Below, piece by piece: positions 2,785 through 20,000 of a stretch of DNA of 20,000 nt. The position numbers were made by a program, and so were the translations under genes. This DNA comes from an uncultured virus (IMG/VR IMGVR_UViG_3300002170_000002) (Duplodnaviria; Heunggongvirae; Uroviricota; Caudoviricetes): IMG/VR virus record IMGVR_UViG_3300002170_000002, positions 45,786 through 65,785 of that record. One strand, 5' to 3'. Within the stretch, counting starts at the first letter, position 1. Each line of letters opens with the position of its first letter. The notes under the pieces are model-generated. The model did no database searches. It was not told the origin of the DNA and saw nothing but the letters and a program-made list of their open reading frames with translations.

Positions 2785-3153
2785 TTAGTGGATTTCTATA
2801 TCAGGAGATTGAGGTGGGTCTGGAAGGAAGCTGGATTGGTGGATGTCTCTTTCATGTAGAGGGGTCTTTCTAAATCTATCAATCAAGGCTCCTACTACTC
2901 CTCTCTCTACTCTGGGAATTGTAACCCAATATCTTTCCCAACAAATGGCTTGGTTGAACCTAAGTAGGGGGATTTCATAGACTACATCTTCTTTGTATTT
3001 TATAAGGATTGTTTCTCCATCTGATTCTGTACTGAATTCATCTAAGGAACCTACCTCGGTTTCAAACTCTTCTAAGGTTAAAGTTCTAACAGTGTTGTTC
3101 ATCTCTTGCATCTCCTCTGCTTCAATTCTCTTTAGTGCTCTTTTCTTATTCAT
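2785..3153 (-). CDS. hypothetical protein (122 aa)
   Basis: AAGGAG/GAGG RBS, start overlaps the upstream stop. Confidence 0.75.
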   Translation of the reverse strand: MNKKRALKRIEAEEMQEMNNTVRTLTLEEFETEVGSLDEFSTESDGETILIKYKEDVVYEIPLLRFNQAICWERYWVTIPRVERGVVGALIDRFRKTPLHERDIHQSSFLPDPPQSPDIEIH

Positions 3154-13516: not shown

Positions 13517-15865
13517 TCACCTGACAGGGCATACTCCAGATGCACATTCAGGGTCAGACTCTATATCCAGTTCTAAATCTTCAAACTCCTCTTCATTCTT
13601 TTCATACTTCTGAATTAGGTTGGGGTTAAAAGGTTTCAGTCCTTTCTTCATCTCTTTATATTCTTCTTCTGAGATAGCTTCATAAGGCATGAGCTGGTAG
13701 AATCCTCCATCATCTGGTAAGAAGGAAATACCCACATAACTATCCCAATTATTCCATAGCCATTCCTCTACATCATCCCACTCATCTGGTTTTACAGTCA
13801 CAGTGATGGATGTATTTTGGTCTGTGTAGAAATCTTGGAACATCTTATAGGTTTCTAATTGCTCTACAGCTGTGAAGGAAGATTTGGTTCTGGTCACCCC
13901 ACTTTCCACAGGGAATTCTACTACTTTGGTATTTACATTTTCCCCTTCTTGCCCTACTTCATTCTTAACTACCCAACCCAATTCCTCACAAACTTTGACA
14001 AGAGGGTCAGCTGCGGAAATTCTGATTCTTCTGATAAAGAATGGGGCATGAGATGCATGAACTCCCGGGCTTACCCCTCCAAAAATCAAGCCTAAAGTAC
14101 CATTGGGGGCTACAGTGGTTACATTGGTGGATTCATTTAGGTTGTGGGTCTTGGCAATCTCTTTGTTAGCTTTATGAGCTACTTCTCTAAGGGAAGAGAG
14201 AATCTTTTCTTGTTCCTCTTTTGTAATATTCGTTCGCTCTACAAAATCTTTCCATCCAGTGATTCCACATCCAGTGAGTCTGTGTTCTTTTTGTACCCTA
14301 TCCCATGTGGGTAGTTCAAGGTCTACCAACGTCATTCTATACCCAGCTCTGGCTGATAGTTCTTGTGCCCTCTTAATCTTCTCTAAGTCATAACTTCCTT
14401 TCTCATCTACAAAAGAAGAGATATTTAGGGAGGTGAGGTTGCAGCATTGTCTGGACTTCAATAAAATTTCTCCACAAGCGTTGGTTCCAGCAAACTCAGG
14501 GAATCTTTTTCTGGCTGCTTCTCCATTAATGATTCCCGGCTCTGCTGACAGTACCATAGTTTGGATAATGTCTTTTAGTTTTTCTCTGGTAGGTTTCTCA
14601 TCAAATATAATACTGTTGTTTGACATCATTCTATGCAGTAGTTCTTCATTGGCTTTCCATTCCCCTTTCTTTTCATCTACCACATAGATATTATCTTTGG
14701 CATGAATCATTTCTTCATCATCTGGGTCAATAAAAGATATGCAAGCACTTCTTCTTACTGCTCCTGATACTACATTTTCTGCAATGGAAGTACAAATATC
14801 CAGTACATCAATGGGTTTTAATTTCCCCCCACTTTTAGTAATGACTTTGTGAATCTTGTTGAACATCTTTTGGAGAGGCTCACTTCCACTGGCAAATCCA
14901 CCAAACTTCATTAGTCTTTCTCCAGCAGGTCTTACATAATCATAGTCAATGATAAGGGTGTCAATAATTTTGTAAGCGTGCTGGGTATGAATTTCCATGA
15001 AGAAATCTAAGGCTTTGTGGAATCCTTCTTTGCTATCACCAATGGTTAAGGTGGCTACATTCTTATCTACAGTAAGCTGTGTGACATCTTCTCTGTCTTT
15101 CTTTTCTACAAAAGTCCATTGCTTATTCACCAAAGAAATGTCTGTGCGGAACTCTGGTAGTTTGTTTACGTATTTCTTTTGTGCCCCAATACCAATCCCC
15201 ACTCCCAACATGAGAACATAGAACATCTCTCCAAAAATATAGATATCGTCTACTGCTGTAAAAGAGCAGTTGAAGTTTTGTAAGGAAGATATTTTGGAGA
15301 CTGGGCTCCCACCTGTGAATAGAGTTCTCCCACTAAGCTGTTGTCTACCATGATAAATGTTGTCAAACAATTCTTCTGCTTCTTCTTTTGTGCTGTAGGG
15401 AGAAAGGCTAATATTATAATCGACTGCTCTGGCAATGGATTCCCAGAATCTTTCTCTTCTCCCCTCTTCAGGAAGGTATCTACTATACGTCCTGTAGAAG
15501 GTGAAGCTTGCTATTTCATTGAGGGGGTCAGGAAGATGTTTATACTTGCTAAGAAACTCTTCACTAAGAAATTTGTATTTCCTTTCCTTCCCCGCTTTTC
15601 TTAATCGATTCTTTTTAGAACGATACTCAATATAGTTCTTGGCTGTTTTGTAGAATCCTCCTGCCATTAACTTCTGCTCTACGAAGTCATGGATGTCATT
15701 AACGGAAGGTAAGCCCATTTCTTTGCAATCTTTCTCTACTTCTTTGGCAATTCCTTTTATTTTGTCGGCATCTATCTCTTCTACATCTGCTGAAATGATG
15801 GCATTTACAATTTTATCTTTGTCAAACTTTTCGGTCTTTCCATTTCTTTTTAGTACTTCTAACAC
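13517..15865 (-). CDS. nrdJ: class II (adenosylcobalamin-dependent, monomeric RTPR-type) ribonucleotide reductase with N-terminal ATP cone
   Basis: ATP cone VLKRNGKTEKFDKDKI...YIEYR; FYRTYSR, NFNCSF, VRPAGERLMKFGG, VRRSA, GTNACGEI, CNL, TTVAPNGT; C-terminal CASGVCP redox pair; no beta subunit gene. Confidence 0.93.
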   Translation of the reverse strand: MLEVLKRNGKTEKFDKDKIVNAIISADVEEIDADKIKGIAKEVEKDCKEMGLPSVNDIHDFVEQKLMAGGFYKTAKNYIEYRSKKNRLRKAGKERKYKFLSEEFLSKYKHLPDPLNEIASFTFYRTYSRYLPEEGRRERFWESIARAVDYNISLSPYSTKEEAEELFDNIYHGRQQLSGRTLFTGGSPVSKISSLQNFNCSFTAVDDIYIFGEMFYVLMLGVGIGIGAQKKYVNKLPEFRTDISLVNKQWTFVEKKDREDVTQLTVDKNVATLTIGDSKEGFHKALDFFMEIHTQHAYKIIDTLIIDYDYVRPAGERLMKFGGFASGSEPLQKMFNKIHKVITKSGGKLKPIDVLDICTSIAENVVSGAVRRSACISFIDPDDEEMIHAKDNIYVVDEKKGEWKANEELLHRMMSNNSIIFDEKPTREKLKDIIQTMVLSAEPGIINGEAARKRFPEFAGTNACGEILLKSRQCCNLTSLNISSFVDEKGSYDLEKIKRAQELSARAGYRMTLVDLELPTWDRVQKEHRLTGCGITGWKDFVERTNITKEEQEKILSSLREVAHKANKEIAKTHNLNESTNVTTVAPNGTLGLIFGGVSPGVHASHAPFFIRRIRISAADPLVKVCEELGWVVKNEVGQEGENVNTKVVEFPVESGVTRTKSSFTAVEQLETYKMFQDFYTDQNTSITVTVKPDEWDDVEEWLWNNWDSYVGISFLPDDGGFYQLMPYEAISEEEYKEMKKGLKPFNPNLIQKYEKNEEEFEDLELDIESDPECASGVCPVR

Positions 15866-15916
15866 CCTACCAACTCCTTTAATAATTTAGTGATAATTTT
15901 TTATTGCCCCTATTAG

Positions 15917-15955
15917 ATAGCAAAAGGAACCCCCGTTAAGGGATTCCTCTGCTAT
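15917..15955 (-). terminator. stem-loop, probable intrinsic terminator upstream of nrdJ
   Basis: Minus strand ATAGCAGAGGAATCCC...GGGGTTCCTTTTGCTAT is an imperfect inverted repeat with G-U pairs, just after the stop at 15970. Confidence 0.6.
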
Positions 15956-15969
15956 TTCTACTATTCTCC

Positions 15970-16494
15970 CTACAGTTCTGGGAGACCTTCTGCTACATCA
16001 CTTTCTTCTGTGTTGTTTTCTTCTTCTATGTTGTTTTCTTCTTCTGGGTTTGGAGGAAACTCCTCTTCGCCCATCATATCTCTAATTTCTTGTGCGGTAT
16101 TTTCGTCTACCATCTCATCTTCTGGTTCTCCTTCCTCGTCAAACCCTTCAATCTGGTTCGCAAGTCTCTGCATCACTTCAAATCCGTTTAGACCATCTGG
16201 GAAAATTTCTTCTACTGTCTTTTCTCCTCCCACATTCTTCTTAGCAAACTTGCATAGCTCATGGATATTGATATCTCTGGTCTGCATCTGGAGCAAGTTT
16301 CTAAAGGACATGAGGAGAACCTTGGCTACACTCTCTGTCATTCCTGAAGCCATTCTGTGGGTACCGTTCTCTGTTATTACATCCAAACAGTATCTGCCTT
16401 CATCCCTATCAACTCTGATGCAATGAATCTTTTCTGCAATAACTACAAACTCATGGTTGTAGGAAGTGATATAGGTTTTCATTTCTTCTCCCAT
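15970..16494 (-). CDS. hypothetical protein with acidic low-complexity C-terminus
   Basis: Globular N-terminal half, EEENN-repeat tail; start at 16494 or at the second ATG after GGAG. Confidence 0.8.
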   Translation of the reverse strand: MGEEMKTYITSYNHEFVVIAEKIHCIRVDRDEGRYCLDVITENGTHRMASGMTESVAKVLLMSFRNLLQMQTRDINIHELCKFAKKNVGGEKTVEEIFPDGLNGFEVMQRLANQIEGFDEEGEPEDEMVDENTAQEIRDMMGEEEFPPNPEEENNIEEENNTEESDVAEGLPEL

Positions 16495-16496
16495 CT

Positions 16497-16691
16497 CTAC
16501 ACCGTTCCCAGTTTGTCAGAATGTACCTTCATGACTTCTTTTACTACTCGAGAAGTAACTTCTTCAATCACTTCTTTCAGATTGTCTTTATCTTCTACTA
16601 CTACAACTTCTTTGTATTCAGCTCCAAAATAATCCTGATTATTCTTTAGTGTAATTTTTGTGCTGAACTCTAACTCTTTTACCTTTGCCAC
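16497..16691 (-). CDS. hypothetical protein (64 aa; start re-called to GTG at 16691)
   Basis: AGGAG RBS precedes GTG GCA AAG; the track start at 16745 lies inside the promoter. Confidence 0.7.
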   Translation of the reverse strand: MAKVKELEFSTKITLKNNQDYFGAEYKEVVVVEDKDNLKEVIEEVTSRVVKEVMKVHSDKLGTV

Positions 16692-16735
16692 TATTTTCTC
16701 TCCTCTCTTTCTTCTGTATTTCTTACGGTGTACAT

Positions 16736-16777
16736 AGTGTATCACATATTTTATCTTTTGTCAACTTTAAGTGGTGT
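16736..16777 (-). promoter_or_regulatory. sigmaA-type promoter with upstream ACACCACT box
   Basis: ACACCACT-taaag-TTGACA-17 nt (ending ATATGTGA)-TACACT. Confidence 0.8.
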
Positions 16778-16806
16778 GCTTGTACTTTACAATATTTTAC
16801 AGCTGT

Positions 16807-17289
16807 CTAATGAATTCCTAAGCGGTTCAGTCTCTTTATCTTTTCCTCCTTCTCTGGGTCATCTGTCTTGATATCAAACACTCCTCTCTTTAACCACTTC
16901 CTAAATTTCACTATCATGTGAACTTGGTCTCTTCTAAACCATCTTCCTTTGATTCCTTTAGCATCATAGTTCCTGTAATAGAAGGGGAGCTGGGGAGTGG
17001 TCTCAGGTTTCCAATACTCGGGGTTCTCGTACCAGTTATAGTAATGCTTGAACCTTGTCATAGAGATTCCTGTTAGATTGGGGATGTGCCAGTGAGCGAT
17101 AATAGGGAAACCAATTCTGGGTACTCTCTTATTCATCTCCATCCACTCAATTAGAACCTGATAATCTAAGGGTAAATCTGTATAGGGTCTTTCTAAGGAT
17201 TGATTGATGACTGTATGGCTTACTGTTTTCTTTCCCTCCACTTCATCTATCAAATTCCGTAGAAACTTCTTTACTAATTCATTCTCCAT
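16807..17289 (-). CDS. putative MerR/Xis-like winged-HTH DNA-binding protein
   Basis: IPNLTGISMTRFKHYYNW...LPFYYR...GRWFRRDQVHMIVKF resembles the MerR-type HTH plus wing; AGGAGG RBS. Confidence 0.5.
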   Translation of the reverse strand: MENELVKKFLRNLIDEVEGKKTVSHTVINQSLERPYTDLPLDYQVLIEWMEMNKRVPRIGFPIIAHWHIPNLTGISMTRFKHYYNWYENPEYWKPETTPQLPFYYRNYDAKGIKGRWFRRDQVHMIVKFRKWLKRGVFDIKTDDPEKEEKIKRLNRLGIH

Positions 17290-17313
17290 CTCCGTTCCTC
17301 CTTTTCTGCTTAT

Positions 17314-17356
17314 AGTATACCATATCTATTTAGGAAATGCAACCCTAAAAGTGGTG
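17314..17356 (-). promoter_or_regulatory. sigmaA-type promoter for the replication module, with upstream CACCACT box
   Basis: CACCACT-7 nt-TTGCAT-17 nt-TATACT. Confidence 0.8.
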
Positions 17357-17373
17357 GCTGAGTATTTTCTTTT

Positions 17374-17416
17374 ACACCACTTCTAAATTGCTTTTCAGTT
17401 TATTTGTTTGTATAAT
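17374..17416 (+). promoter_or_regulatory. divergent sigmaA-type promoter with upstream ACACCACT box
   Basis: ACACCACT-tctaaa-TTGCTT-17 nt-TATAAT. Confidence 0.75.
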
Positions 17417-17421
17417 AAAGG

Positions 17422-17603
17422 CAAGGTAGCAAGGAGTGGAATGTTAAAGACCCACTAACACCTACGGGAATATTCGGAACATATTCTAAACACAACTAAT
17501 CAAGGGATTTCGCATACTGTCCACAAACCTTAAAGAAGTTTGTGGATGAGAGGACTGCTCCTTGCTTACCTACTCTTGAGGTTCTCGATGAGCCTCTTTT
17601 TTT
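17422..17603 (+). ncRNA. putative structured small RNA (about 180 nt), family not recognised
   Basis: Bounded by a promoter and an intrinsic terminator; 5' AGGTAGCAAGGAG pairs with 3' CTCCTTGCTTACCT; internal hairpins; no long ORF. Confidence 0.6.
17578..17603 (+). terminator. Rho-independent terminator
   Basis: GAGGTTC-TCGAT-GAGCCTC followed by T7. Confidence 0.8.
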
Positions 17604-17898
17604 ATACCTTGAATCAATTATATATTTATACATAAGTATGAATAATTATATCACTTTATTATAAGTTTTTATTTTCTTGTGTGCATCTGTGTGTACATAA
17701 GGGTAAATGTAAAAACGTGAAGAGCTTAGATTTCAACGTTTAGTGATAAAAGCACTTTAGTCGGGTGGGGTGAATAAAATTCATTTCGCTATTTTTCAAC
17801 GTTTCTTATTTTTTAGGGTATTTTTAATTGTAGATAGTGTAGTCTATACAAGTAATGATAAAAGCTCACAAATGGCTTGATTTCAATGGTTACAGCAA

Positions 17899-17941
17899 AC
17901 ACCACTATAAAATTGACAAAACCCATTTTTGACTGTATAAT
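17899..17941 (+). promoter_or_regulatory. perfect-consensus sigmaA promoter with upstream ACACCACT box and no downstream gene
   Basis: ACACCACT-ataaaa-TTGACA-17 nt-TATAAT. Confidence 0.8.
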
Positions 17942-18056
17942 AAAGACACCCCGAAGGGAAAACACCCACCCGTAGGGTGGGATATAAATCTACCGCTGTA
18001 TTTAATAACTACTAAAACTATATAGCTGTTATTTACTGTGATATTTTTAGATGATA

Positions 18057-18106
18057 AAGTTATCCACAAATGTTAATGTATATGTTGATAACTTTGTGGA
18101 TAACTT
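18057..18106. promoter_or_regulatory. DnaA-box cluster, candidate replication origin element
   Basis: TTATCCACA 18060-18068, TGTTGATAA 18083-18091 (1 mismatch), TGTGGATAA 18095-18103; the outer pair forms a 14-bp inverted repeat. Confidence 0.7.
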
Positions 18107-18129
18107 AGGGGAATGAAGGATAACTACTA

Positions 18130-18165
18130 ACACCACTTGACAAATAGAAAGATATGTGGTATAGT
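18130..18165 (+). promoter_or_regulatory. sigmaA-type promoter with extended -10, convergent with the lysis genes
   Basis: ACACCAC-TTGACA-17 nt (ending ATATGTGG)-TATAGT. Confidence 0.8.
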
Positions 18166-18183
18166 ATAGATGGGGAGGAAAAG

Positions 18184-18213
18184 AAAAAGGAGATGAGCTA
18201 GTTCTCATCTCCT
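18184..18213 (-). terminator. Rho-independent terminator of the lysis operon
   Basis: Perfect 10-bp stem AGGAGATGAG/CTCATCTCCT with a U-tract on the minus strand, just downstream of the holin stop. Confidence 0.85.
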
Positions 18214-18250
18214 AATTTAATAACTTTACATTCAAGATGTAAAGAAGAAA

Positions 18251-18862
18251 TTAATCTCTGGATTGCGTAGGAATGTTTCCAGAACCTTCATCACCCAACG
18301 TTTCTCGAATGGCTTCTACGTCCTCATCATTACCTACATAATCCTCCTCTACTACATCCACAGGCACATCATGTGCATCCTCCCCAAATTCCTCTTTATA
18401 TCCTTCATCAGGGAGTTCTTCAGGATTTTCACAATCCTCTTGAATTGGTACAGCAACAGGAACTACCTCTACATCACCATACTTTTTAGATTCATTGATT
18501 TGAGATTCAATCTCTGATTCAATAAATACCGTAAAGTCTTTGTGCATCTTTTCAACAGCTGCCCTGCCTTCAGCATCTACTTGCTGTTCTACCAGTTTCT
18601 TAGTTCGATAGAAAGCTTCACGCATTGCTTCCTCATCAAACTTTCCTTCCTTCTTCAGTTCATCAACAAATCGTTGATTGGTGAAGTTAATGGAACGGGC
18701 AATGGTTTGTAGTACCATTTGTACATTTTCTCGTACATCTTCATTCTTAATATTCTCCGTTTTCTTTAGGAAGAAATTAAGAGCTACCAGTACCAGAGCT
18801 ACCAGTGCAGGAGAAAGTACAGCAATGGCAATTCCACCCAAAAATCCAACATCCAAATTCAT
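18251..18862 (-). CDS. holin (LL-H-like, single N-terminal TM) with long acidic tail
   Basis: N-terminal hydrophobic helix, then TNQRFVDELKKEGKF...IESEIESQI; AAGGAGG RBS; in the endolysin cassette. Confidence 0.75.
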   Translation of the reverse strand: MNLDVGFLGGIAIAVLSPALVALVLVALNFFLKKTENIKNEDVRENVQMVLQTIARSINFTNQRFVDELKKEGKFDEEAMREAFYRTKKLVEQQVDAEGRAAVEKMHKDFTVFIESEIESQINESKKYGDVEVVPVAVPIQEDCENPEELPDEGYKEEFGEDAHDVPVDVVEEDYVGNDEDVEAIRETLGDEGSGNIPTQSRD

Positions 18863-18888
18863 AACATTACCTCCTTATATTTTATTTT

Positions 18889-19215
18889 CTAACCCTTAGC
18901 ATTAAAGGGAACAGGAATAAATTCATTTTCCCAATCTTTTATCTTTCTATTATCTGCAATAAAAGCATTTACTGTACTCTCATCTTCCTCTTTTCCTACC
19001 CCAACTTTAATGAAGGTATAATAAGGATAGATGTTTTCATTCCCTACATAGATGATTCTCTGGAATAGTTCTGTAGGAGTCATCCCATAGTCAAATTGTA
19101 CAGCACCACTCACTTCTTTAATGATTTGATTCACATATTTTTGGTGGGATGCCTGAAGAGTAAATACACCAAATCTGGGTTGCATCTTGAGCAACTCTAC
19201 TTTTCCTGAAGCCAT
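18889..19215 (-). CDS. stand-alone homolog of the endolysin C-terminal (CD27L/CTP1L-like) domain; exact start uncertain
   Basis: Ungapped alignment with the endolysin C-terminus, 13 of 45 residues identical. Confidence 0.6.
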   Translation of the reverse strand: MASGKVELLKMQPRFGVFTLQASHQKYVNQIIKEVSGAVQFDYGMTPTELFQRIIYVGNENIYPYYTFIKVGVGKEEDESTVNAFIADNRKIKDWENEFIPVPFNAKG

Positions 19216-20000
19216 TTCGTGACCGCCGCATCTGTTTCTTTGCGATTTTCGCCCGACAAATGAATCGTCGCCTTGTCGTCTTTGGGCCCGCCTACCTGGA
19301 TGATCTCCTTGTAGTACGCCGGATTGACTCGGCTTGCATCCACCAGCACCGCTCCTTCCACCTGCGAAACGATGCGCAACACACCGCCTAAGTCTGCCGT
19401 GCTTTTTGCGTACACGCCGATGTGGTAGGGCGTGGGCGTGTCCGGTGCAGGAGTTTCGGGCTCATCGACTACAAGCACCGGATCAAAGCGGTCGAGGTTG
19501 TAATCCTTGATGCGCTTCGTCAGCGTCTGTGCATACGTCGGGCTGGTCGCATACGTGCCGGTCAGCGCATTGACCGCTACTTCCCACGACTTCGCTGTGT
19601 AGACGGGCTTATAAAGCTGTACCCGTGTCGGCGTTGATCGGAAAAACTCGCCATGATCCTTGACGCTTTCTTCCCACGAATTGTATTTTCTAAAAGCGGC
19701 ATCGACCTTGACGTACTGGCCGTTCACAAACTCGCTTGTGCTTTTCGTGTACTTCTCGCCCGTCCACGGTGCGCTTGCCTTGATGCCAAAAAGATTATTC
19801 GCTTTCCGGGCCAATTCCGAATTTCCGTTTGCACTTTCGACCATACCTTGCGCAATCGTCACGCTGGGCAAGATGCCCGACTTCTTGTAGTCCGCCTGTG
19901 CCAAAGGTGCAAGAAAGTCTATAAATTCTTCCGGCGTCCACTCCTTATCGCTCGACTGATGATAAAAAGCCGCAAGTGTGTCGGCTGTGGCTTCGGCTAC
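19197..20000 (-). CDS. endolysin: GH73 glucosaminidase + Pro-rich linker + CD27L/CTP1L-like C-terminal domain; N-terminus lies beyond the window
   Basis: GILPSVTIAQGMVESANG, ANNLFGIKA, FRKYNSWEESVKDH, YATSPTY; frame open to the right edge (VAEATADTLAAFY..., resembling the end of an Amidase_3 domain); C-terminal IIQVGG...SGENRKET. Confidence 0.9.
   Translation of the reverse strand, partial: VAEATADTLAAFYHQSSDKEWTPEEFIDFLAPLAQADYKKSGILPSVTIAQGMVESANGNSELARKANNLFGIKASAPWTGEKYTKSTSEFVNGQYVKVDAAFRKYNSWEESVKDHGEFFRSTPTRVQLYKPVYTAKSWEVAVNALTGTYATSPTYAQTLTKRIKDYNLDRFDPVLVVDEPETPAPDTPTPYHIGVYAKSTADLGGVLRIVSQVEGAVLVDASRVNPAYYKEIIQVGGPKDDKATIHLSGENRKETDAAVTKWLQEK

Follow-up and report, generated by a model that had tools for sequence, protein, structure and literature searches.

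Our analysis points to a probable small RNA gene in the early control region of an uncultured phage, predicted to produce a ~181-nt transcript (17423..17603, plus strand; start placed from the -10 spacing, end at a T tract) whose first nucleotides pair with the region just upstream of its own terminator. The window analysed here is a 20-kb stretch of DNA that ends a linear virus record of 65,785 bp (G000); in it, a 160-aa ORF and the holin gene are separated by 962 nt, the third longest gap in the genome, and this gap contains the candidate. A first-pass annotation had proposed a structured noncoding RNA with its own promoter and terminator, of a possibly new family; a stand-alone small RNA gene belonging to no Rfam family stands as the best reading, on the Rfam null, the relationship of its promoter to a second promoter in the gap (P3) and a shared CACCACT motif, although transcription itself is predicted from sequence. 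We judge it quite likely that the candidate gene is transcribed.

The gap lies upstream of the genes for RNR, helicase loader, helicase, primase, SSB and polymerase, and the minus strand of the window as a whole encodes RNR, a DnaC-like loader, a DnaB-like helicase, primase, SSB, DNA polymerase, clamp and a Cas4-like nuclease, then holin and endolysin. Because the closest cultured phage polymerases, at 33-38% identity, are those of Clostridium phage phiCTP1 and Streptococcus phage Dp-1, we infer that the host belongs to the Firmicutes; host-directed searches found no close named host. At least half of the words of 16800-18300 are present in 14 runs, and when two possible source runs are set aside, the runs with these words represent eight studies of biogas, digester and wastewater samples. 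At the end of the window (19000-20000), the endolysin gene has 49-52% G+C against 37% for the genome, differs from the endolysin of the sister phage described below and is matched there by many other contigs, a pattern that suggests a recent swap.

Next to the candidate is a divergent gene (16807..17289, minus strand) for a 160-aa protein with a MerR-like helix-turn-helix, an assignment that is a lead only, given its weak scores (best Foldseek E 0.11, to MerR-family rows); a single-sequence fold of the protein reached a pLDDT of 38 and is unusable. We considered this gene as a conserved partner of the RNA and rejected the idea, as the RNA is absent from 15 distant homologue loci, where the helix-turn-helix gene sits mostly inside an operon. 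The association of the two is thus local. The leftward early operon has its own divergent promoter, PL (17314..17342, minus strand). The RNA had also been described as transcribed opposite to every gene, which holds within the window; the gap, however, contains two more plus-strand promoters, and in the sister phage three plus-strand genes lie 0.8-3 kb downstream, for a PD-(D/E)XK protein, a ThyX-like ORF (matching genome positions 37854-38535) and a Mom-family protein. Since the sister phage carries these genes there, the plus strand is a normal direction of transcription in the gap.

The promoter assigned to the RNA, P1 (17388..17416, plus strand), is of the sigma-A type, with TTGCTT at 17388-17393, a 17-nt spacer and TATAAT at 17411-17416; it and all other motifs listed in the first-pass annotation are present where that annotation had placed them. 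A consensus scan omits P1, whose -35 has only 3/6 matches, and the scan overall is not enriched (44 sites vs 52.8 in shuffles). The stretch containing P1 (17375-17423) is the genome's best match to P3 (17913..17941, plus strand), a promoter with 12/12 consensus positions: 32 of 49 positions are identical and the next best match reaches 28 of 49, among all 49-nt windows on both strands of the 65.8 kb. P1 therefore reads as a paralogue of P3, which faces a group of DnaA boxes and has no long ORF behind it in the window. Between the sister phages, P1 shows 0 differences over 17388-17422, and P3 retains identical -35 and -10 elements while five of its spacer positions differ. The sequence TATAATAAAG has three genome copies where 0.7 are expected, all in one 550-nt stretch, at 17411 (+), 17936 (+) and 17663 (-).

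A further motif, CACCACTT (17375..17382, plus strand), sits 5 nt ahead of the P1 -35 and is seen again at four more promoters in the region; it is likely to be a binding site for a phage or host factor. Of the 15 genome copies of CACCACT, five fall within 16776-18131, placed 4-6 nt before the -35 of P1, P3, PL and a promoter at 16764 and overlapping the -35 of a promoter at 18137. An inverted pair of the CACCACTT motif occupies 17349-17383, between the back-to-back promoters PL and P1; as a candidate operator for the MerR-like neighbour, it could allow that protein to regulate both PL and P1. Facing P1 is a convergent promoter-like site, P2 (17658..17685, minus strand; TGCACA-16-TATAAT, then AAAG; 10/12 consensus). 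No minus-strand terminator-like site occurs between P2 and the leftward operon, so a putative P2 transcript would run antisense to the whole RNA. Directly behind the RNA's terminator is a stretch of 86% A+T (17597..17677), itself inside a 141-nt run that is invariant in the sister phage (17538-17678), and farther on are three DnaA boxes (18057..18106), two of them perfect and the third with a single mismatch, which the sister phage retains in rearranged form (L071 2272-2321). Two of these boxes are 3 bp apart, as in the clusters described for T5 (bioRxiv 10.1101/866236). With five promoters (PL pointing left, P1, P3 and the one at 18137 pointing right, and P2 facing P1), a shared CACCACT, an AT-rich stretch and DnaA boxes, the gap is, as judged by these motifs, a control region.

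Several other features of the gap were recorded along the way. P3 drives a second noncoding stretch (17913-18056) toward the DnaA boxes, and this stretch has two small GC hairpins, one terminator-like, whose minus-strand sequences are C(UUCG)G and C(UACG)G; at 18046, the sister phage carries an insertion of 142 nt. Farther along, 18131-18213 resembles an emptied cassette, in which a promoter and a ribosome site are followed by a two-codon frame, and in the sister phage, sequence similar to the 18137 promoter precedes the Mom-family gene, with the PD-(D/E)XK and ThyX-like genes immediately before it on the plus strand. The 28 nt at window positions 17868-17895 recur as a perfect direct repeat at G000:C1:35078-35105, ~28.6 kb away, each copy in a long noncoding gap; the repeat is kept in the sister phage (G001:C2:32295-32322 and 2977-3004) and could be a recombination or protein-binding site.

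Folding of the predicted transcript upheld most of the anatomy that had been proposed for it. The closing stem pairs 17424-17439 with 17555-17571 over 16 bp, three pairs longer than first drawn, with pair probabilities of 0.89-1.0 except at one bulge-slip pair. Its 5' arm (17424..17439, plus strand) includes AAGGAG (17431-17436) and its 3' arm (17555..17571, plus strand), which is invariant in the sister phage, includes the anti-SD sequence CTCCTT. Within this clamp, the hairpin first described as GAATAT/ATATTC (17468-17486) is present as a 7-bp hairpin with a 7-nt, GGA-bearing loop (17467..17487, plus strand); its pair probability is 0.78-0.87 here and 0.62-0.69 in the homologue, where its sequence is invariant. 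The hairpin placed at 17520-17546 is likewise present, as an 11-bp hairpin with a 9-nt loop at 17529-17537 (17518..17548, plus strand), whose arms resemble DnaA boxes with 2 and 1 mismatches. By contrast, the proposed TGTTA/TAACA hairpin (17442-17460) was not borne out, with a pair probability of 0.07-0.09 and pairing that is broken in the homologue. The expected terminator follows the closing stem (17578..17603, plus strand) as a 7-bp stem (17578-17596; pair probability 1.0) and seven T residues (17597-17603), and is invariant in the sister phage. Around 60% of 17440-17516 is unpaired, in A/C-rich linkers.

The 186-nt stretch has a fold z of -3.75 on the plus strand, where none of 200 shuffles folded as well, and of -2.49 on the minus strand; for the 150-nt core without the terminator the values are -3.81 and -3.23. 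With folding adjusted for composition, 11 of 2188 genome windows fold better. The interior alone has a z of -0.96, and of -0.58 without the 17520-17546 hairpin, and so is not unusually structured; it is the closing stem and the 17518-17548 hairpin that account for the fold signal. The genome has one other long-range duplex that matches the closing stem in strength (-26.9 vs -25.3 kcal/mol), and the stem taken alone is near chance level for one genome. Because a duplex of similar energy exists elsewhere, the stem is persuasive not by its energy but by its register with promoter and terminator: it starts at the predicted start site and stops 6 nt before the terminator. Among 41 modelled pairs, 6/6 non-Watson-Crick positions are G-U on the plus strand, a count biased by the taking of helix ends from the plus-strand fold. 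GGA occurs seven times in 150 nt (P 0.01 vs 5000 dinucleotide shuffles, a post hoc comparison); only 2/7 copies, at 17476 and 17552, are fully exposed and neither is ANGGA, the two ANGGA are paired or partly paired, and one GGA is lost in the homologue. The genome's most stably folding windows (z -5.9) lie elsewhere, at G000:C1:27480-27690, in a long palindromic stretch inside an 84-aa ORF.

A gapped DNA pattern run over GTDB returned 58 loci, of which one was real. This sole real homologue, L071 (G001:C2), is in a 39.7-kb contig of a sister phage that is 95.6% identical over the region; its assembly is labelled Gammaproteobacteria, presumably through mis-binning. Inside the RNA, L071 has four substitutions, G17439A, A17457T, T17515C and T17518C, and its copy of the 9-nt loop 17529-17537 is exactly inverted. 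G17439A removes the last pair of the closing stem, and T17518C makes the hairpin arm less like a DnaA box and improves its pairing. The collection of homologues and covariation check suggested by the first-pass annotation thus yielded a single near-identical sister, in which 43 of the 46 modelled pairs are invariant, but two are broken, one shows a consistent change (U-G to C-G) and 0 are compensatory. Inversion of a loop between inverted repeats is a described product of template switching (PMC8794818), and the consistent pair change could stem from the same event; programmed inversion by an invertase was considered and rejected, since the 9-nt flip matches the template-switch loop inversions described in that source.

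Promoter, 3' arm and terminator show 0 differences between the two phages. The element has accumulated 5 events in 208 positions vs 34 in 541 for the rest of the aligned gap (Fisher p 0.04, with boundaries set post hoc and substitutions that cluster), and its divergence of 2.4% is similar to that of the RNR gene (69/2349). Beyond the terminator, the invariant run 17538-17678 goes on for another 75 nt, to the P2 -10.

Other RNA and mobile features were observed in the two phages. At G000:C1:35457-36975, a HEARO RNA (123.9 bits; L123 16742-16975) lies upstream of a 421-aa ORF that we take to be IscB-like; the sister phage's own HEARO copy is elsewhere, at an interruption of the RNR region (L121 7738-7947). 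At G000:C1:23497-24112, two matches to group I introns (L123 3497-3754 and 3876-4112) lie between two ORFs that are presumably pieces of a terminase gene. Upstream of its lysis genes, the sister phage encodes a reverse transcriptase (L121 18811-19593; RVT_1, E 4.6e-18) that is cut by the contig end and lies 6.8 kb from the RNA element. Its motif GLPIGNYTSQ is, we presume, of the DGR type, and it has no VTG or NAxxH. A tblastn search of G000 with this protein gave no hit, G000 being a linear contig that lacks the junction behind the endolysin, where a reverse transcriptase could lie.

The first-pass annotation had also drawn attention to a mini-ORF, MLKTH* (17441..17458, plus strand), whose ribosome site AAGGAG is held in the 5' arm of the closing stem, and computation agrees: at full length the SD has a probability of 0.0 of being unpaired in both copies. 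It is half open until the 3' arm is made and fully paired in the finished RNA, and no co-transcriptional hairpin that would hide it in the nascent RNA is predicted. In L071, A17457T (TAA to TTA) converts the stop of MLKTH* to Leu, so that the same frame stays open for 31 codons and ends just after the loop of the 17520-17546 hairpin begins; both T-to-C changes fall within it at synonymous third positions. Frames of 31 open codons arise in 15% of shuffles. The spacing from GGAG to ATG is 4 nt, and a spacing of at most 4 nt is found in 3 of 43 phage genes with GGAG. The 31-residue peptide has a GRAVY of -0.45, a best 17-residue window of 0.03 and no hydrophobic helix, and has no homologue among proteins of 23-74 aa nor in the protein collection.

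No tRNA, 6S RNA, ribozyme or riboswitch could be assigned at first reading, and neither Rfam nor ARAGORN (0 genes) gave a match at the element. No Rfam 15 family, be it tRNA, 6S, SRP, Y RNA, riboswitch, ribozyme or CRISPR repeat, reaches its gathering threshold there, so the strong hit that would remove the novelty is absent; over the whole window there are two matches at E<=1, neither at the element, and over 17250-18260 at E<=10 there are 14, all far below threshold. Particular classes were compared and set aside on specific features. In 6S RNA, two long irregular stems form a rod with a bubble at its centre; the fold here, a 16-bp stem closing a multiloop, has no such rod, and Rfam returned no 6S row. 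A riboswitch or attenuator is at odds with a terminator of pair probability 1.0 and with the lack of any plus-strand ORF of at least 50 aa before 18263, save a shadow frame, and a MITE or IS relic with a single-copy element that has no target duplication at its stem ends. In retron ncRNAs, a terminal inverted repeat closes the RNA and the cognate reverse transcriptase is encoded adjacent; the 16-bp terminal stem matches this outline, but no retron-type reverse transcriptase is adjacent. The candidate is like retron msr-msd RNA and 6S RNA in its size class of 150-190 nt and in having its ends paired as a terminal stem.

Other known systems offer partial likenesses. The GGA excess, seven in 150 nt with one in a hairpin loop, recalls the CsrB/RsmZ sponges; unlike them, the candidate has no repeated short hairpins and no ANGGA loop, and with 2/7 GGA exposed and none in an ANGGA hairpin loop, it was rejected as a Csr/Rsm sponge by the test as PMC7652899 defines it. 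That source describes the CsrA antagonist of B. subtilis as a protein, FliW. Like the type I toxin mRNAs with a long-distance interaction (LDI), such as aapA/IsoA and hok/Sok, in which a far-downstream anti-SD locks the SD of a short ORF (PMC6733600), the candidate has an SD computed to be occluded by an anti-SD, a short ORF and a convergent promoter-like site of 10/12, which no minus-strand terminator-like site follows; unlike them, its ORF, open in one of two copies, is broken in the window copy, its peptide has no homologue and no metastable hairpin to hide the SD is predicted. Most type I toxins are hydrophobic (PMC8309996), and the candidate fails the test for a type I toxin because the peptide (GRAVY -0.45) is not and has no transmembrane helix. 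In lambda, OOP is a small RNA with its own promoter that runs against the early genes, a promoter tied to replication control (PMC12197685). The candidate shares this arrangement, but OOP overlaps the cII mRNA, whereas here no ORF of at least 50 aa overlaps the RNA, which would overlap only the leader of the hypothetical P2 transcript, if P2 fires, and which has a closing stem. The noncoding PE1-T transcript of lactococcal phage c2, for which a role at the origin has been proposed, likewise comes from a host-type promoter in a noncoding region heading the early genes (PMC7150918); our candidate differs in running away from the early operon, in having its own terminator and 5'-3' clamp, and in belonging to a phage that encodes its own replisome genes. 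The comparison with c2 is one of geometry, with a putative origin here and no sequence link expected. The phage sRNA section of PMC12197685, which gives base pairing as the usual mode, covers phages of Proteobacteria only.

Beyond L071, searches for relatives were negative. In blastn the element gave one weak hit among phages (E 0.4) and E 0.6 among plasmids; DNA patterns in IMG/VR gave 0 hits in one case, 0/9 real in another and 0/1 real for the promoter pattern, and in JGI metagenomes 0/31 were real. Scans anchored on proteins (HTH, holin, RNR, 174-aa ORF, helicase) reached distant relatives only or none. A two-sequence covariance model recovered only its own two copies in 28 sources, found nothing in 15 other phage records and nothing at the 15 distant HTH-homologue loci, where the best score, 15.1 bits, was a terminator-only match; homologues that have diverged would escape both the exact patterns and a model built on two sequences. 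An exact-motif text search of the literature returned nothing relevant, and the phage structured-RNA catalogue PMC10690425 has no match in six of its nine supplementary files (all but files 1, 2 and 4, which may hold alignments). The sequence of the element thus appears undescribed. Phage small RNAs that have their own promoter and terminator and lie next to an early control region are already a known kind, and because there are two near-identical copies, no covariation and a transcript that is only predicted, the label of a new family is not warranted.

To look at expression, we used assembled contigs of three RNA-labelled runs and one DNA run over 15800-19400 (4 of 24 runs). Contigs of the RNA-labelled run X16 cover 15947-17294 and resume at 18347, those of X18 extend up to 17307, and neither of these two runs has depth over 17373-18340, contig gaps of this kind being uninformative. 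RNA-labelled X20 gets no farther than 17453 and includes other noncoding pieces as well, so it may contain DNA; contigs of the DNA run X13 extend to 17603. The element is not fully spanned in any of the three RNA runs. RNAs that are short and structured often drop out during library preparation or assembly. In two studies the RNA contigs break off at 17294 and 17307 while the DNA contig runs on, which weakly suggests that transcription from PL begins close to the predicted position.

How the element acts is open to several readings, among which we place first, tentatively and at less than even confidence, a stable, end-protected early RNA that binds a host protein. On this account, host sigma-A RNA polymerase would transcribe a ~180-nt noncoding RNA from P1 early in infection and release it at the intrinsic terminator. 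Its first base is computed to pair with the region just before the terminator, forming a 16-bp clamp that would hide both the 5' end and the ribosome site, the latter being chance or vestigial. The clamp would yield a long-lived RNA, calculated to expose ~75 nt of A/C-rich sequence with little stable folding, along with a loop that carries GGA, and it would be as a molecule, not as an mRNA, that the RNA might bind and titrate a host RNA-binding or defence protein. A clamp from the first nucleotide is a design of stable RNAs. This reading ranks first because a cis-acting or short-lived antisense RNA would not need a clamp and because the linkers have no notable phage target; P3 paralogy, CACCACT, the register of the stem, the plus-strand G-U pairs, conservation in the sister phage and the GGA excess also count for it. 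Against it are the lack of covariation, an interior that is not significantly structured, a divergence like that of RNR, the exposure of only 2/7 GGA and the absence of the RNA beside 15 distant HTH-gene homologues and from 15 other phage records; the invariant run that continues 75 nt past the terminator fits a constraint at the DNA level and so also speaks against a stable RNA.

That same run, which spans the 3' end of the RNA and the P2 -10, counts for the next reading, possible but less probable, that the transcript would act in cis on a control or origin region, transcription from P1 into the AT-rich stretch opening or timing an origin or opposing P2, whose putative transcript would cross the element in antisense and enter the early operon, a geometry like that of lambda OOP. 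A 962-nt gap upstream of replication genes with 86% A+T behind the terminator, three DnaA boxes 450 nt on that are kept in the sister phage, and a P2 that converges without an intervening minus-strand terminator-like site would all suit such a role, as would the analogies with c2 PE1-T (PMC7150918) and lambda OOP (PMC12197685). A cis role, however, needs no 16-bp 5'-3' clamp, and the origin is itself a deduction; P2 has a 16-nt spacer and no CACCACT, in AT-rich DNA where such matches are common (44 vs 52.8 shuffled), and T17518C worsens DnaA-box likeness while improving pairing. It is unlikely that the transcript is instead an mRNA for the 31-residue protein, intact in the sister and prematurely stopped here, with its SD locked by the 5'-3' stem as in type I toxins and an antisense RNA made from P2. 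The SD is paired in the finished RNA and half open before the 3' arm, a lock like the LDI of PMC6733600, and the L071 frame is open for 31 codons within the clamp, with two synonymous T-to-C changes and a convergent promoter; but the peptide is hydrophilic, unlike most type I toxins (PMC8309996), and without a homologue, and no nascent hairpin hides the SD. A coding role is weak because the window copy stops at codon 6, the SD spacing is a short 4 nt, and a frame of this length has a P of 0.15 in shuffles.

We give about the same low credence to there being no functional RNA at all, the inverted repeats serving as protein-binding or cruciform sites in DNA or marking a gene cassette emptied between promoter and terminator. 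The same gap does hold another emptied cassette (promoter 18137, two-codon frame), the minus strand is almost as well folded once the terminator is removed (z -3.23), the genome has a stem of similar energy elsewhere, and the loop inversion shows that the hairpin behaves as a DNA inverted repeat whose loop orientation is tolerated. Set against this, the stem is in exact register with start site and terminator, the wobble pairs favour the plus strand, and promoter, 3' arm and terminator are invariant while nearby spacer positions vary. Less probable still is a trans-acting sRNA whose open A/C-rich linkers pair with host or phage mRNAs: the phage sRNAs that PMC12197685 describes usually act by base pairing, and ~60% of 17440-17516 is unpaired, but the three open segments match phage start regions no better than shuffles do (fractions 0.18, 0.75 and 0.38; 40 shuffles each), the longest genome match is 12 nt and the anti-SD tract is buried, these comparisons covering phage targets only. 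At the speculative end, we hold it improbable that the element represents a new class of Firmicutes-phage clamp RNA, a stable decoy that would titrate a host RNA-binding or defence protein and perhaps a dual-function peptide/noncoding gene that switches between sister strains; its partners might then be a Csr-type regulator, reached through GGA motifs, or a reverse-transcriptase defence system, through the retron-like outline.

Were the element untranscribed or active only in cis, it would be an ordinary part of a phage control region. If it is a stable decoy or an origin RNA, it would contribute a mechanism of host takeover or replication control in the little-studied Firmicutes phages of anaerobic digesters, for which the two natural alleles, with the loop flipped and the ORF open or shut, provide a ready comparison.
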